Below are positions 5,306 through 20,793 of a stretch of 64,000 nucleotides of DNA, piece by piece. The DNA is taken from the NCBI GenBank assembly GCA_947084965.1, contig CAMTUG010000003.1:360-64359 (forward strand). The letters are read 5' to 3'. The DNA is from an uncultured Parcubacteria group bacterium (GTDB lineage: Bacteria > Patescibacteriota > Patescibacteriia > UBA9934 > CAMTUG01). The notes beneath the pieces are model-generated. The model saw nothing but the letters and a program-made list of their open reading frames with translations. It ran no database searches and was not told the DNA's origin. Position numbers and translations under genes: made by a program. The stretch's first letter is position 1; each line of letters begins with the position of its first letter.

Positions 5306-5391
5306 TGGTGCTGGGGGGGAGAATCGAACTCCCACGACCTTGCGGTCACATGGTTCTAAACCATGCGTGGCTACCATTACACCACCCCAGC
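5306..5391 (-). tRNA. tRNA-Leu (anticodon UAG), CCA encoded
   Basis: Minus-strand cloverleaf: acceptor gctgggg/ccccagc, anticodon stem catgg/ccatg with loop tttagaa, long variable arm gacc-gcaa-ggtc, T-arm gggag-ttcgatt-ctccc, then A-CCA. Confidence 0.7.
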
Positions 5392-6039
5392 TTGCAACAA
5401 AAGAATTCTACTTGCGATCTCCCGCTTTCTTGGGAGGAAGTACTTTACATCATCATAATACATCGACTTTAGCAAACTTAATGAATCTTTATTACCAAAA
5501 CACAGATAATAGCAAAATTCCCCAGAATGACATTTTGATGAGCTGATCCAGCCGCGGTTAATCTGAAAGATTGTCTTTATCTTTCCGTGGATCCACTCCA
5601 GAAAGTCACGACTAGCCGACGCAAGCCTCAGACGAATTTGAGGACGGGTGGTCTCCGGATGACTAAATGTTCCGATGGTGCCATCTCCATCGATGCATCC
5701 ACGAAAGAAATCAACGAAGTAATCATCTGGAACCTGGACTGATTTGAGCTTCCTCGACTTAGCAGCCATTAATCCAATGGACGTTAGAAATTTATAAAAA
5801 TTCTTGTCTCCGAACTGAACAATAAAATATCTTTTCTCGGTTTCTCCACCGCGGACTCTCCGACCAATAGCATTATCGAGATTGAGACATCGCTTAAAAG
5901 TCCTTGCCAATTCTCCATCCTTTGAAACGAATACTATATGCCTGCCGTCGGTCGATAAATTTCCATCAGACGTGATTAACCCAATTGCATATGCCAATTC
6001 AGGTCCCCAGTTGATGTTAACTTTAGATCTTCGTTTCAT
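5377..6039 (-). CDS. LAGLIDADG homing endonuclease (two-motif, single chain)
   Basis: Motifs LAYAIGLITSDGNL and FFRGCIDGDGTIG. The last 5 codons and the TAA stop lie inside the tRNA-Leu 5' acceptor stem and D-arm. Confidence 0.8.
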   Translation of the reverse strand: MKRRSKVNINWGPELAYAIGLITSDGNLSTDGRHIVFVSKDGELARTFKRCLNLDNAIGRRVRGGETEKRYFIVQFGDKNFYKFLTSIGLMAAKSRKLKSVQVPDDYFVDFFRGCIDGDGTIGTFSHPETTRPQIRLRLASASRDFLEWIHGKIKTIFQINRGWISSSKCHSGEFCYYLCFGNKDSLSLLKSMYYDDVKYFLPRKREIASRILLLQAGVV

Positions 6040-16530: not shown

Positions 16531-18003
16531 TTGACCTTCCGTCAATTCGCAATTGGGTATATGATGAACACAATTATGGCTCATGAGTCCGGGAAACTCG
16601 CACGCAACACCGCTCTGCAGATCGCCGGAAAGGCGATCGGTATTCTTTTGGGACTCGCGACCGTCGCCGTTCTCTTCCGTTATTTGCAAGAAACGGGATT
16701 CGGAGAGTTCACGACGGCGATCACCTATCTTTCGATCTTTGCGGTGATCGTGGACTTCGGTCTGACCCTCACCACGGTCCAGATGATCTCGGAACCGGGA
16801 GCTGATGAACCGAAGATCCTCGGCAACATCTTTGCCTTACGCATTCTCTCCGGCCTCGTCGTCTTCACCCTCGCTCCGATCATCGCTCTCCTCTTCCCTT
16901 ACAGCCCAATCATCAAGTTAGCGATCGCCGTCGGTTCGATGGCCTACTTCTTCTCCTCCACTTCGCAGATGCTCGGAGGGGTTTTCCAAAAACGCCTCGA
17001 GATGTGGCGCGTCGTTCTGGCTGAGTTGGTCGGACGGTTGATCCTGCTTGTCGGTTCCGTCTTCGTTGCCCTGACCGCCGGATCGATGATCGAAGTCGTC
17101 CTCGCGATCGTCATCGGCAACTTCGCCCAACTAGCCATCACCCTCCTCCTCGCCCGGCCGTTCGTGCGCATCAAATCTGCGATCGACCTCGCTATCTGGA
17201 AGATGATCCTTAGCCGTAGCTGGCCGATCGGAGTCAGTATTATCTTCAACGTCGTCTACCTGCGCGGCGACATCCTCTTCCTTTCTTTCTTCCGCGATGA
17301 CGCCGAAGTCGGTTTCTACGGCGCGGCTTACAAAATCATCGACACCCTCACCGCCATTCCAGTTCTCTTCATGGGGCTGATCCTTCCCATGCTCGTCTCG
17401 GCCTGGTCGGACCACAACAGAGAGCGATTTGCCGCACTGATGCAGAAAAGCTTTGATTTCTTCGTTCTCCTCGGTCTCCCGATCGCCGTTGGTGCCTATG
17501 CCCTCGCTACCCCGCTCATGGTTTTGTTTGGTGGCGAGCGCTTCGCCCCGTCCGGCGCGATCCTTCAAGTCCTCGCCCCGACGATCTTCATCGTCTTTGT
17601 GGGCGCTCTCTACGGCCACGCGATCGTCGGGATCCGCAAGCAAAAACCGATGGCCTTTGGCTATGCCATAACCGCGGTCGTTTCGATCGCCGCCTACCTC
17701 TACTTCGTCCCTCGCTTCGGCGGGATCGGCGCCGCCTGGGTAACGTTCATCTCCGAAGCCCTTCTGGCCGCGATTACCTACATTGTTGTCGTCAAAACAT
17801 CCGGTGCCTCACCGCGTCTCACGATCCTTTGGAAGTCAGCTCTTGCCTGCCTGATCATGTTTGTCACGTTGACCGCAACTCCTGACATGCACGTCCTCCT
17901 CCAGGTGGTCCTTGGCGTCCTCGCTTATACCGCGGCCGCGATCGCCCTTAAGATGATCTCGGTGCGCGAAGTCCGTAACCTCTTCTTAAAGCGCGCCGTA
18001 TGA
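16531..18003 (+). CDS. MOP-superfamily polysaccharide/lipid-II flippase (Wzx/MurJ-like)
   Basis: 490 aa with about 14 TM helices and a polysaccharide-biosynthesis-protein-like layout. The true start may be a few codons downstream. Confidence 0.6.
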   Translation: MTFRQFAIGYMMNTIMAHESGKLARNTALQIAGKAIGILLGLATVAVLFRYLQETGFGEFTTAITYLSIFAVIVDFGLTLTTVQMISEPGADEPKILGNIFALRILSGLVVFTLAPIIALLFPYSPIIKLAIAVGSMAYFFSSTSQMLGGVFQKRLEMWRVVLAELVGRLILLVGSVFVALTAGSMIEVVLAIVIGNFAQLAITLLLARPFVRIKSAIDLAIWKMILSRSWPIGVSIIFNVVYLRGDILFLSFFRDDAEVGFYGAAYKIIDTLTAIPVLFMGLILPMLVSAWSDHNRERFAALMQKSFDFFVLLGLPIAVGAYALATPLMVLFGGERFAPSGAILQVLAPTIFIVFVGALYGHAIVGIRKQKPMAFGYAITAVVSIAAYLYFVPRFGGIGAAWVTFISEALLAAITYIVVVKTSGASPRLTILWKSALACLIMFVTLTATPDMHVLLQVVLGVLAYTAAAIALKMISVREVRNLFLKRAV

Positions 18004-19241
18004 TCTTTCCTATCCTCCTCGGCCTCGTCGCCTTCCTCTTTGCCTACATCGCCTTTAACGACTTGCGCCAGGCGATCATCCTCCTTCTCGGCCTCCTCCC
18101 CACCTACCTCATCCGTTTTTCTATCGGCCCATTCCCGACGACCCTCCTGGAAGTACTCCTCCTTATTCTGATTCTCGTTTGGGTCGTTCGATTTCACGGC
18201 ATCCCTGCGGCCACAACCCTCCACGGACACTGGATCTGGGCGATCCTGCTCCTCATCGCCGCCGCATCGATCGGCGTGAGCGTAGCCCCAGACACCATGG
18301 CCGCACTCGGAATCTGGAAGGCGTACATCATCGAACCGATCCTCCTCTTCCTTATCATTCGAACGACGATTAAAACAAAAACAGATATCGAGTGGGTCTT
18401 TATTGCTCTCGGGATCAGCGCAATCGTTGTCTCTATTTTTGCGATCATCCAATTCCTGACCGGCATCGGCCTCCCGATCCCCTGGGACATCGAACGCCGC
18501 GTCACCAGTTTCTATGATTTCCCAAATGCGGTCGGGTTATTCTTGGGGCCTGTTGTGACGATCGGGCTCGTGCACCTATTTCGTCCAGTCAAAGAAATCA
18601 CGTTCTCTGCCACAGGCCAGCGCTGGTTCTGGGGATTGGTCTCTGCCCTCGGGCTCGTAACGGTCATCCTCGCCAAAACCGAAGCGGCACTCGTTGCGAT
18701 CCCAGCGGCGATCCTGCTCGTTTCCTTCTTATGCAAATCGACACGCAAGTTCACGATCCCGTTCGCGATCCTCCTGGCGATCGTCGCCTTCGCGATCACT
18801 CCGGTCAAAGAAAAACTCCTCCTAGAAGACTACTCTGGCGGCATCCGCCTTTCCCAGTGGCGCGAAACGGCTGAGCTCCTCAAAGACCACGCGCTCTTCG
18901 GCACTGGCCTCTCGGGGTATCCAACAGCTCTCGCTCCGTACCACCAAGACACTTGGATCGAGATCTTCCAATACCCGCACAACATCTTCTTAAACATCTG
19001 GGTAGAATTAGGCCTCCTCGGCCTCGTTGCTTTTGTCCTCCTGGCAATCACCGTCCTGCGCAACTTCCTCCAAAACCGCAATGACCCAACGACGATCATC
19101 GCCTTCACCGCCCTCCTCGAAATGCTGATCCACGGCTTGGTCGACGTCCCCTACTTTAAAAACGACCTGGCCGTTCTAACCTGGGCACTCCTCGCCATCC
19201 TCTCCCTTTCCTCGGTTAAGATTGAACGGAAAAACCCCTAA
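18000..19241 (+). CDS. O-antigen ligase (Wzy_C)-family membrane protein
   Basis: Multi-TM protein with the periplasmic loop motif YPHNIFLNIWVELGLLGL. Confidence 0.6.
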   Translation: MIFPILLGLVAFLFAYIAFNDLRQAIILLLGLLPTYLIRFSIGPFPTTLLEVLLLILILVWVVRFHGIPAATTLHGHWIWAILLLIAAASIGVSVAPDTMAALGIWKAYIIEPILLFLIIRTTIKTKTDIEWVFIALGISAIVVSIFAIIQFLTGIGLPIPWDIERRVTSFYDFPNAVGLFLGPVVTIGLVHLFRPVKEITFSATGQRWFWGLVSALGLVTVILAKTEAALVAIPAAILLVSFLCKSTRKFTIPFAILLAIVAFAITPVKEKLLLEDYSGGIRLSQWRETAELLKDHALFGTGLSGYPTALAPYHQDTWIEIFQYPHNIFLNIWVELGLLGLVAFVLLAITVLRNFLQNRNDPTTIIAFTALLEMLIHGLVDVPYFKNDLAVLTWALLAILSLSSVKIERKNP

Positions 19242-19250
19242 TATGAATGA

Positions 19251-19280
19251 AAAAAACCGAGCGCTTGCTCGGTTTTTTTC
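19251..19280. terminator. bidirectional rho-independent terminator
   Basis: aaaaaaccgagcg-cttg-ctcggttttttt. Confidence 0.75.
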
Positions 19281-19281
19281 A

Positions 19282-19371
19282 TGGCGGAGAGGGAGGGATT
19301 CGAACCCTCGATACCCTTGCGGGTATGCGGCTTTTCGAGAGCCGTCGTTTCGACCACTCACGCACCTCTCC
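19282..19371 (-). tRNA. tRNA-Ser (anticodon CGA), CCA encoded
   Basis: Minus strand: ggagagg acceptor, anticodon loop ctcgaaa, long variable arm, T-arm gagggttcgaatccctc, then cctctcc-g-cca. Confidence 0.75.
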
Positions 19372-20359
19372 TTGTTGTGACGAAATTATTATAACGACAG
19401 ATATGCTTTGGATTATCTGACCCTATTTCGTCGAAGAACTTTTTCACATCTTGCTGTCGCCTCAGAAACACGGAATGTTGTGTCACCTTGTATGAAGGCT
19501 TGAACCCTAATCGTCGAAGCGTAGTAAAGATATCTTGAAGGAACTCCGGCGCATGACTAGTAATCGTCAGCCCGATGTGCGCGTAAAGTTTATGCTTTAT
19601 TTGGTGTTTGTCAAGGAACACGCAACCGTCCGTATCGAATAGTCCTCGAAGGAACGCCCGCTCGAATGACGGCTTGGCGTGAACCCATTCTGGAATACAT
19701 AATCCGTTATCGATCTTCTTTCCTTTTGGAACCCCGAGAGTACGGAGATGCTCAACCATCTGTTTTGAAGAAAACAAAACGAGTGTTGATTTCTCGCCTG
19801 AACGCGATCTGACGGATGCCTTAACCGAAAACAACTCCTCTCCAAGTTCTGCAACAAACTTGGCATGGTCTCCGTCCGTTTCAGAGTTTGTGACCATGAG
19901 AACTTGGTACCTAGCCAGATGACCGTCACCCGCAATAATTCCGACAAACTCTGCCAAGGCCTCGTTCTTCATGGGCATTGAGACTTGTTTCTTCAACCTA
20001 AACCCAGTTTTCAAATTTCGTTGAGCCGCAACCGATTGTAATCCGCCCTTTCGCCGACCTTCCGGAGTACCAAGATCACCATACAATTCCGCCCGGCGTT
20101 GTGCGCCCTTCCTGGCCGCGCCCTGAATATGCCAATAGTCATCAAGATACGTTGGTTGAAATGATTCTGGCTTTTTGTTGACTATAGCAGCAAGCACACG
20201 GAACGCTTCTTCTGAAATCAGATACTTACCTCGCTTCCAATCGCGCATCGTTCGTTCACACACGCCAGCCAACTCACTGAGTTGATGGCAATTAAAACCA
20301 CGCTCCTTCAACTTTCGAAACAGCTCTGTTCGCAAGGTGTCTGATAGTTTGATGCGCAT
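19358..20359 (-). CDS. LAGLIDADG homing endonuclease with N-terminal helix-turn-helix domain
   Basis: Motifs LAEFVGIIAGDGHL and FLRGLFDTDGCV, with an N-terminal HTH (LSELAGVCERTMRDW). The last 4 codons and the TGA stop lie inside the tRNA-Ser 5' end. Confidence 0.8.
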   Translation of the reverse strand: MRIKLSDTLRTELFRKLKERGFNCHQLSELAGVCERTMRDWKRGKYLISEEAFRVLAAIVNKKPESFQPTYLDDYWHIQGAARKGAQRRAELYGDLGTPEGRRKGGLQSVAAQRNLKTGFRLKKQVSMPMKNEALAEFVGIIAGDGHLARYQVLMVTNSETDGDHAKFVAELGEELFSVKASVRSRSGEKSTLVLFSSKQMVEHLRTLGVPKGKKIDNGLCIPEWVHAKPSFERAFLRGLFDTDGCVFLDKHQIKHKLYAHIGLTITSHAPEFLQDIFTTLRRLGFKPSYKVTQHSVFLRRQQDVKKFFDEIGSDNPKHICRYNNFVTTRRGA

Positions 20360-20373
20360 GATACAAATGTATC
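20360..20373. promoter_or_regulatory. perfect 14-bp palindrome GATACAAATGTATC abutting the endonuclease start codon (candidate operator)
   Basis: Read directly; immediately 5' of the ATG at 20359. Confidence 0.4.
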
Positions 20374-20541
20374 ATTTCGTAGCAGTCCTAACTATCTACT
20401 ATGCCACCTCTCCGTATATACAAAACGATGTCATGATATACTTTTATTATTACATCTAACCCACACATGTATGGCCAAGGGAAACAATGCCCAGAGCAAG
20501 AACAAGAATAAGAAGAAGCCGAAGCAGAACAAAAAGAAGTA

Positions 20542-20793
20542 ATGGCTTCTTGGACTGTCTACATTCTGAAGTGCGGCGACGGATCGCTCTACACCGGGAT
20601 CACTAACGATCTCGAGAAGCGAATCGAAAAACATAACGCTGGCACCGGCGCCAAGTACACGCGGTCGCGATTGCCCGTCCGCCTCGCCTGGTCCGAATCG
20701 GTCGAGAGCGAAAGCGCAGCCAAAGTGCGGGAGGCGCAGATCAAACGTCTGCCGCGGAACAAAAAATTATCCCTGGTAAAAGCGGCCCCTTAG
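20542..20793 (+). CDS. GIY-YIG nuclease-domain protein (YhbQ/UPF0213-like)
   Basis: WTVYILKCGDGSLYTGITNDLEKRIEKHN. Confidence 0.7.
   Translation: MASWTVYILKCGDGSLYTGITNDLEKRIEKHNAGTGAKYTRSRLPVRLAWSESVESESAAKVREAQIKRLPRNKKLSLVKAAP

Follow-up and report, generated by a model that had tools for sequence, protein, structure and literature searches.

A LAGLIDADG endonuclease gene abutting tRNA-Ser(CGA) in a Parcubacteria group bacterium: a candidate homing cassette of tRNA-Ser genes

In a 64,000-nucleotide (nt) stretch of contig CAMTUG010000003.1 from an uncultured Parcubacteria group bacterium (assembly GCA_947084965.1, positions 360 to 64,359; the whole stretch is called the window below), the 3' end of a LAGLIDADG endonuclease gene overlaps the start of a tRNA-Ser(CGA) gene. 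This layout is conserved in more than 140 independent loci. The reading that we favour, and consider fairly probable from the sequence comparisons described here, is that the gene belongs to a free-standing LAGLIDADG homing-endonuclease cassette which is specialised on tRNA-Ser genes and is mobile or was so recently. A first-pass annotation of the same DNA had proposed a palindromic operator at the start codon, which is the least supported part of the picture, whereas the interest lies in the conserved architecture of endonuclease and tRNA. That annotation overlooked the tRNA adjacency as a conserved property of the family, as well as the remnant of a tRNA 5' half upstream of the gene.

Endonuclease genes that abut tRNA genes

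The features of the locus, and of the first locus of this kind in the window, are listed below by their window coordinates.

19358 to 20359, minus strand: endonuclease open reading frame (ORF) of the helix-turn-helix (HTH)-LAGLIDADG type, 333 amino acids (aa), ATG to TGA (ORF list and Pfam)
19282 to 19371, minus strand: complete class II tRNA-Ser(CGA) with encoded CCA (ARAGORN; Rfam RF00005, 53.9 bits against a gathering score of 29)
19247 to 19282, both strands: bidirectional intrinsic terminator with perfect 16-nt arms, a 4-nt loop and flanking A and T runs
20150 to 20359, minus strand: N-terminal XRE-like HTH domain, residues about 1-70 (helices of the AlphaFold (AF2) model, HTH matches in the family)
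19916 to 19957, minus strand: LAGLIDADG motif 1, LAEFVGIIAGDGHL, with catalytic Asp145, read off the sequence; G144, D145 and G146 invariant in 29 sequences
19619 to 19654, minus strand: LAGLIDADG motif 2, FLRGLFDTDGCV, with catalytic Asp244, read off the sequence; R238, G239, D242, T243, D244 and G245 invariant
20358 to 20375, no strand: 8+2+8 inverted repeat, ATGATACA-AA-TGTATCAT, overlapping the -10 box and the start codon
20366 to 20374, minus strand: predicted extended -10 element, TG-A-TACATT, ending 6 nt before the ATG
20375 to 20413, minus strand: putative decayed 5' half of a tRNA-Ser(CGA), GGAGAGGTGGCATAGTAGATAGTTAGGACTGCTACGAAA, positions 1 to about 38 (acceptor 5' strand, D-arm, anticodon-loop CGAAA)
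5306 to 6039, minus strand: first locus, a 220-aa LAGLIDADG ORF (ATG at 6039, stop at 5377-5379) overlapping tRNA-Leu(TAG) (5306-5391) by 15 nt

The 3' end of the endonuclease ORF reads ...ACA ACA AGG AGA GGT GCG TGA, giving the protein tail ...TTRRGA, and the tRNA starts at the second base of AGG, which results in a 14-nt overlap. The stop codon TGA (19358-19360) occupies tRNA positions 12-14, at the start of the D-arm. The RRGA-TGA ending, the overlap of about 14 nt and the stop inside the D-arm had all been read from the letters in the first-pass annotation, and the ORF, ARAGORN and Rfam coordinates agree with them. The same holds for the bidirectional terminator placed directly downstream with the tRNA. 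Its arms (19247-19262 and 19267-19282) follow right after the CCA of the tRNA and are flanked by A7 and T7 runs, and its folding energies on the two strands, -22.8 and -23.3 kcal/mol, correspond to z = -7.0 and -5.5. The plus-strand O-antigen-ligase-like gene (18000-19241) shares it with the minus-strand endonuclease-tRNA unit. The terminator is absent from the list of a simple terminator scan because its A and T runs pair with each other.

Judged by structure prediction and by matches to known domains, the protein is a two-motif LAGLIDADG endonuclease with an N-terminal HTH of a probable XRE-like type, and the first-pass annotation was right to call it an HTH-fused LAGLIDADG endonuclease. Pfam PF14528 (LAGLIDADG_3) matched residues 232-313 with E=9.6e-12 (45.4 bits against a cut-off of 22.5) and was found in all 29 family members examined. 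Statements on invariant residues refer to an alignment of these 29 sequences. Both motifs end in a catalytic Asp (GIIAGDG, D145; GLFDTDG, D244), and both Asp residues are invariant. The AF2 model built on this alignment reached a pLDDT (predicted local distance difference test) of 90.9 and has the alpha-beta-beta-alpha-beta-beta-alpha double-domain fold of LAGLIDADG enzymes. Its best Foldseek matches in the PDB were I-Tsp061I, the VMA-intein endonucleases and I-DmoI (E=1e-10 to 1e-6, probability 1.0), with TM(target) (template-modelling score) values of 0.76 for I-Tsp061I at E=1e-10 and about 0.68 for I-DmoI. A family profile run against PDB sequences matched 2dch and the VMA inteins.

The N-terminal 70 residues or so form a 5-helix bundle in the AF2 model with pLDDT above 90; helices 7-19, 24-31, 35-43 and 50-59 have values of 92-97. 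The single-sequence model of this domain reached only pLDDT 54. A Pfam search of the window protein itself gave no HTH at E<=1, and an NCBIfam search gave a weak VC1465 match (E=0.011). Among the family members, HTH_3 was found in 10 of 29 and HTH_23 in 11 of 29. The HTH profile weakly matched HigA2 and DBP48 (8tac) in the PDB at E of about 0.01, and also lambda-repressor-like proteins and PbsX. The recognition helix lies at about residues 35-43 (ERTMRDWKR), and its family consensus, RTxxDWxxG, is conserved. By length, homologues fall into three classes: HTH-bearing proteins of about 333 aa, HTH-less ones of about 260 aa and core-only forms of about 200 aa. Between the HTH and the LAGLIDADG core, linker residues 85-106 (about 20042-20107 of the window, minus strand) carry a conserved Gly/Arg-rich motif, LYGNLGTPEGRRKGG, in which G85, T98, R102, G105 and G106 are invariant. 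The motif is kept in HTH-less homologues and has a pLDDT of 63-81. It may be an extra DNA-contact element.

Related loci were drawn from two independent collections, the species genomes of GTDB and the metagenome contigs of JGI (Joint Genome Institute). The genome set comprised 80 loci from Patescibacteria and a few DPANN archaea. The metagenome set comprised another 80, of which 72 could be evaluated for tRNA adjacency, and the statistics on upstream regions are based on 135 non-redundant loci. The family is large. We found 301 homologues of the 333-aa ORF at E<=0.001, and encoding matches number at least 481 in GTDB species genomes and at least 514 in metagenome contigs. Identity among family members is 30-55%, and the closest homologue of the window ORF, L168 (L numbers designate individual loci), is 54% identical to it.

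A tRNA on the same strand begins at the end of homology in 73 of the 80 genome loci and in 70 of the 72 evaluable metagenome loci. The abutting tRNA is nearly always Ser, with CGA the commonest anticodon and GCT, TGA and GGA following; the non-Ser cases are Tyr in two loci and Gln in the archaeal loci. Of 146 loci, 112 have the ORF stop inside the tRNA; all three reading frames occur, with offsets ranging from -78 to +209, and homologue C-termini such as GEVPKWS, GGVA and GGVG are the translated 5' end of a tRNA. Since the stop occurs in any frame and at varied offsets, the protein tail is incidental and the junction is the conserved feature.

The first-pass annotation had likened this locus to the first one, and the overlap of the 220-aa ORF with tRNA-Leu(TAG) confirms the likeness. 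The two ORFs are 26% identical. Members of the first-locus family number more than 1000; their C-termini (GRVAELV, AGVV) are a translation of the tRNA-Leu 5' end, and in three fetched loci of that family (L170, L174 and L175) tRNA-Leu(TAG) is overlapped by 10-24 nt. A search for a scar 5' of the gene in the tRNA-Leu family gave nothing significant, with GGTTTAG (anticodon stem-loop) followed by a TATAAT -10 box in L170 and L174 as a hint. The bacterial tRNAs linked to these endonucleases are thus Ser, Leu and Tyr, exactly the three tRNAs with a long variable arm (class II). In DPANN archaea, related endonuclease genes are found on tRNA-Gln.

The upstream remnant, the promoter and the inverted repeat

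Upstream of the gene, reading on the minus strand from 20413 to 20375, a sequence matches the 5' halves of real tRNA-Ser(CGA) genes at 28-29 of 39 positions. Its first 16 nt are identical at 15 positions to the tRNA of L084, a relative that lacks the endonuclease gene. Aligning each upstream region with its own downstream tRNA was mostly non-significant (6 of 72 reached p<=0.01, and these included neighbouring real tRNAs). The scars resemble generic or other-type tRNA-Ser and not the adjacent one, which led to a test with a hidden Markov model (HMM) of the tRNA-Ser 5' half, and this test worked. Counting a region as positive when it scored above the 99th percentile of shuffles, 28 of 135 upstream regions were positive as compared with 1.35 expected. 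The remnant of the window also scored above this percentile. Counted from the start codon, 16 of these 28 have tRNA position 1 at -53 to -58, and the window has it at -54.

In alignment A3, the match between 18 upstream regions (the window and 17 loci) and two real tRNA-Ser genes starts at position 1 and extends over the anticodon loop, with the consensus GGAGGGGTGGCAGAGTGGTTGA-n10-CTCGTAT. The stems of the remnants have decayed to A/T-rich sequence, and the D-loop and anticodon-loop motifs keep their spacing. The remnant of L094 equals the endonuclease-free tRNA-Ser(CGA) of L039 over positions 1-22 (22/22). The archaeal locus L069 has a tRNA-Gln remnant of a like kind, followed by a TATA box. 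It is this register across the family that makes it convincing, at the level of sequence, that the window remnant would be a decayed tRNA-Ser 5' half. Around the remnant there is also a 20-nt direct repeat of 75% identity, between 20432-20451 (CATGATATACTTTTATTATT) and 20357-20376 (CATGATACAAATGTATCATT). This places a second CATGATA-type sequence just past the scar, 75 nt upstream of the start region.

The region between the remnant and the gene has a predicted promoter layout. In 55 of 135 loci a TAnnnT hexamer begins at precisely -12 from the start codon, as compared with about 5 at any other offset, and TG is present at -15/-14 in 26 of these 55. A sequence resembling a Shine-Dalgarno (SD) site was found in only 10 of 135 loci. 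The -10 layout occurs in relatives with or without the HTH, and in the window the start region reads TG-A-TACATT (20366-20374), TGTATC, ATG. The fixed -12 position of the hexamer and the scarcity of SD-like sequences predict a leaderless mRNA that starts at the A of the ATG. The endonuclease mRNA is thus probably leaderless, with its start deduced from these positions. In close relatives, the D-loop of the remnant reads GGTTGACT and lies 17 nt upstream of the -10 box. In L002, the remnant D-loop and the -10 box together form a near-consensus promoter, TTGACT-17-TATAAT.

No positional promoter peak was found before tRNA +1 (at most 13 of 131 loci), and no terminator lies between the ORF and the tRNA. 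The simplest inference from these two results is one transcript from the ATG to the terminator at 19247-19282. A promoter-like sequence, TTGACA-16-TAAACT (10/12 matches), is present inside the ORF (19614-19587, minus strand) and precedes tRNA +1 by about 215 nt. As a dedicated tRNA promoter it is within chance expectation; it could still serve the tRNA independently in this genome.

What, then, is the inverted repeat at the start codon? The first-pass annotation described GATACAAATGTATC as a perfect 14-bp palindrome. A real inverted repeat is there, but it is not perfect, as the central AA is not self-complementary; it has the form 6+2+6 and extends to 8+2+8. Nor does it abut the ATG, since it contains the first two bases of the start codon. 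It is made up of the TG and most of the hexamer of the -10 element, followed by the 6-nt spacer and the AT of the start codon. Locally the repeat is non-random, with 8-nt arms arising in 0-1 of 200-300 shuffles of the 42-nt region. An RNA hairpin at the start codon was considered and is not exceptional (-7.7 kcal/mol, z = -1.2); a leaderless mRNA would not contain it. The search for further copies found the repeat to be single-copy in the window, so it is not a widespread motif, and it is absent from 168 other fetched loci save L081, which is the same genome.

That the repeat is an obvious autoregulatory operator, as the first-pass annotation held, finds no support: it is not conserved at HTH-bearing promoters and coincides with the -10 box and the spacer. 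In its explicit form the proposal is that the HTH dimerises on ATGATACA-nn-TGTATCAT and represses its own gene, which would be compatible with the homing cassette. Besides being locally non-random, the repeat is placed where a repressor would block RNA polymerase. Of 41 HTH-bearing loci, 3 have arms of at least 8 nt where 0.23 would be expected, as compared with 0 of 94 others (0.36 expected), and in L169 a 5+4+5 repeat covers the -10 box. Autorepression is typical of XRE-type HTH proteins, among them HigA2, Aca2 and DdrO, which are weak PDB relatives here, and the homing endonuclease I-TevI is a known autorepressor as well. However, the repeat is missing in 38 of the 41 HTH-bearing loci and in L168, which has the same architecture. 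The three sequences with arms of at least 8 nt are unrelated to one another in spite of the conserved recognition helix, and one of them is the window, which was chosen for its repeat; without it the count is 2 of 40. A/T-rich -10 regions tend to self-complementarity, and HTH-less relatives keep the same promoter layout. We consider autorepression through this repeat unlikely.

The conservation of the recognition helix argues for a conserved DNA target and not for a palindrome specific to one genome. The HTH more likely helps to bind such a target, either the tRNA-Ser gene or the promoter scar, than a private palindrome. On the simplest view, the inverted repeat would arise because in this genome the stretch from the -10 box over the 6-nt spacer to the start codon is self-complementary by chance; it is most likely promoter sequence and not a demonstrated operator.

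The homing cassette and its alternatives

Evidence for mobility comes from empty sites, base composition and tRNA variants. The host of the window is an Uhrbacteria-like patescibacterium. The relatives L082, L084 and L086 share the synteny of SpoIID, Polysacc_synt and Wzy_C genes with tRNA-Ser(CGA) and have no endonuclease gene. There the tRNA-Ser(CGA) comes directly after the ligase gene and on its strand (L082:2260-2400, L084:5260-5379 and L086:4780-4930). The ligase proteins of these relatives are 51-78% identical to that of the window (78% for L082), so that the relatives are not close. The endonuclease gene has a GC content of 47.2% and a GC3 (GC at third codon positions) of 0.47, against a window mean of 54.9% and a GC3 of 0.63-0.74 in the neighbours. 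Its 1-kb stretch is the 5th-lowest in GC of 252, and the four lower ones all cover the first endonuclease locus. A D-arm variant (TACCGAAG; GGAGAGGTACCGAAGTGGTCATAACGG) was found in 40 of 88 endonuclease-adjacent tRNA-Ser(CGA) genes from several distant classes of the candidate phyla radiation (CPR), among them L001, L002, L006, L012, L022, L025, L044 and L051, versus 0 of 10 endonuclease-free ones. The scars upstream of the endonuclease genes are of the ordinary GTGCCAGAGCGGTTGA D-arm type. This distribution suggests that the variant part of the tRNA may travel horizontally with the endonuclease gene.

Read along the minus strand, the unit consists of a putative tRNA-Ser 5'-half scar, the predicted extended -10 element, the ORF, the complete tRNA-Ser and the terminator, with the first 14 nt of the complete tRNA supplying the last codons and the stop of the ORF. 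How could such a cassette enter an essential tRNA gene and leave it intact? It would enter a resident tRNA-Ser near the anticodon loop (about position 38) through repair triggered by the endonuclease. Either a replacement for the 5' part or an entire variant tRNA would come with it and keep the tRNA whole. The displaced 5' half would be left upstream, where in relatives the D-loop GGTTGA would become the TTGACT -35 box. Endonuclease and tRNA would be co-transcribed, the endonuclease mRNA being in effect a 5' leader of the tRNA. Cleavage by RNase P at tRNA +1 would then release the tRNA, leave the endonuclease mRNA without a stop codon and keep the level of the enzyme low.

Several observations weigh against this account. 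The block of remnant, endonuclease, tRNA and terminator is inverted in the window as compared with L082, L084 and L086, which calls for an extra rearrangement, and a search for flanking inverted repeats that could explain the inversion gave none that was convincing. The functional tRNA-Ser of the window has the ordinary D-arm type, and the endonuclease-free control set of 10 tRNA-Ser(CGA) genes is small and taxonomically uneven. With a closest homologue that is only 54% identical, any transfer was not recent. The window remnant is weak when taken alone (4.4 bits with nhmmer), and the Rfam tRNA model does not call it on a truncated slice. The scars are clear only in the Ser-CGA subfamily, with no cognate anticodon remnant upstream of the GCT, TGA and GGA loci. 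The scar pattern is common to distant hosts and may therefore travel with the gene instead of forming at each insertion. A simple scan for consensus promoters found no -35/-10 pair before the window ORF. The intact downstream tRNA keeps any target that lies wholly inside the tRNA, which leaves self-immunity unexplained. The locus is known here from sequence and predicted structure alone.

Could the gene instead encode a regulator or another resident factor of the tRNA-Ser transcription unit, a domesticated, vertically inherited LAGLIDADG-HTH protein of the WhiA type and not a mobile nuclease? The linkage to one gene class is very tight across deep lineages, and the divergence among members (30-55% identity) is old. 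The domain content is that of WhiA, with weak Pfam WhiA-LAGLIDADG matches in 13 of 29 members, and the tRNA appears to depend on the promoter of the endonuclease gene. On the other hand, both catalytic Asp residues are invariant, there are syntenic relatives without the gene, its base composition is foreign, and the structures that match best belong to genuine homing endonucleases. Members also sit on four Ser isoacceptors, on Tyr and on archaeal Gln, and include HTH-less and core-only forms. Taken together, these points make a domesticated factor quite improbable. An undetected, degenerate intron in the tRNA-Ser gene is another alternative, in which the upstream half would be the 5' exon and the "complete" downstream tRNA would partly be intron. 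The scar does end at the anticodon loop, the site of tRNA introns, and group I introns are common in the tRNA genes of Patescibacteria (PMC13011429). However, searches with Rfam over the whole window at the gathering threshold and over 19200-20560 at E<=10 gave no group I or II intron and only tRNA and chance hits. The tRNA downstream is complete and has a well-paired 5' half of its own, the upstream half has decayed stems and is overlapped by the promoter, and the ORF runs into tRNA position 1 and not into a 3' exon. We regard an intron as extremely improbable.

The homing cassette thus remains the reading that we prefer, and a bolder version of it joins several of these elements. Here the cassette would comprise the -10 box, the endonuclease gene and either a variant tRNA or a substitute for the tRNA 5' half, and would home into the anticodon-loop region of tRNA genes with a long variable arm (Ser, Leu and Tyr in Patescibacteria) and of tRNA-Gln in DPANN archaea. 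The displaced 5' half would be recycled as the -35 box and spacer of a hybrid promoter. The tRNA would be transcribed only through the endonuclease gene, so that a host losing the gene would lose the tRNA, and RNase P would do the "splicing". The tRNA-like scar, and not the palindrome, may then be the operator of the endonuclease or of its HTH, in the manner of I-TevI. We put this combination forward tentatively, as a possibility that we hold at somewhat less than even confidence.

Homing endonuclease genes are thought to persist in cells mainly inside self-splicing introns or inteins. The large family described here, which abuts tRNA genes, uses neither; a tRNA half would be its promoter material, and the tRNA apparently rides on the endonuclease transcript. 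If true, removal of a 5' leader by RNase P would be a third "phenotypically silent" niche for such genes. It would also explain a recurrent oddity of annotation, namely ORFs in CPR and DPANN genomes that end inside tRNA genes. Horizontally moving tRNA variants would have been identified in organisms with minimal genomes, and the family would be a source of natural meganucleases with specificity for tRNA genes.

Known systems and neighbouring genes

The window protein shares its fold with I-Tsp061I, I-DmoI and the VMA-intein endonuclease domains (PI-SceI), including two LAGLIDADG motifs each with a catalytic acidic residue. Unlike these enzymes, it is encoded by a free-standing ORF with its own start, with no ribozyme detected and no host protein frame. 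Unlike the LAGLIDADG genes of introns and inteins in general, it abuts a tRNA and a duplicated tRNA 5' half, and the protein has the extra HTH and the conserved GTPEGRRKGG linker. In the same broad group of hosts, the CPR bacteria, LAGLIDADG genes have been described in rRNA insertions and introns (PMC11270868, PMC11809585). In a survey of tRNA introns, the group I introns of Patescibacteria that encode endonucleases carried HNH genes, and the only introns with LAGLIDADG genes were in tRNA-Arg(CCU) of Cyanobacteriota (PMC13011429). The searchable literature gave no description of LAGLIDADG genes abutting tRNA 5' ends or of tRNA-half scars. The enzyme is of a known kind, and its niche and architecture appear to be new.

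Intronless homing by phage endonucleases (T4 SegB, and SegF, SegG and MobE) offers a close parallel, as it likewise involves a free-standing gene beside a presumed conserved target, and spread would be by repair-mediated co-conversion of flanking markers. SegB lies in and cuts the tRNA gene region of T4. The relation of SegB to tRNA has been discussed (PMC13096335). In contrast with the window family, however, the SegB type is a GIY-YIG enzyme of a phage genome, with no overlap of ORF and tRNA, no tRNA-half scar and no evidence that a tRNA needs the promoter of the endonuclease. Free-standing endonuclease genes of mitochondria, such as that at Allomyces atp6, insert near the end of a gene and carry a duplicate of the displaced terminus. 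The logic is the same, in that a replacement segment borne by the element keeps the host gene whole and a pseudo-fragment is left behind. Whereas the Allomyces type replaces the 3' ends of organelle protein genes, the window family would replace a tRNA 5' half in free-living CPR and DPANN cells and re-use the relic as a promoter.

A tRNA gene is also the conserved landing site of those genomic islands and phages that integrate there, and it is restored by sequence borne on the element. Such islands and phages depend on tyrosine or serine recombinases and attP/attB sites and restore the tRNA 3' end, whereas here a 1-kb cassette without a recombinase would restore the 5' side. I-TevI and WhiA are precedents for an endonuclease-type protein that binds at a promoter through an HTH. 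Of the two, I-TevI belongs to the GIY-YIG class and has an operator that is similar to its homing site and is not a private palindrome. WhiA and the window protein have the same two domain types. In WhiA, however, the HTH is C-terminal and the catalytic residues are lost, whereas the window protein keeps D145 and D244.

Adjoining the cassette on the plus strand (20542-20793), a gene encodes an 83-aa protein that consists of a GIY-YIG domain only (Pfam E=2.6e-18). The protein is also present in the endonuclease-free relative L082, so it is probably a host gene that lies outside the element. A tiny lysine-rich ORF, MAKGNNAQSKNKNKKKPKQNKKK, is located 5' of the GIY-YIG gene at 20473-20541 on the plus strand.

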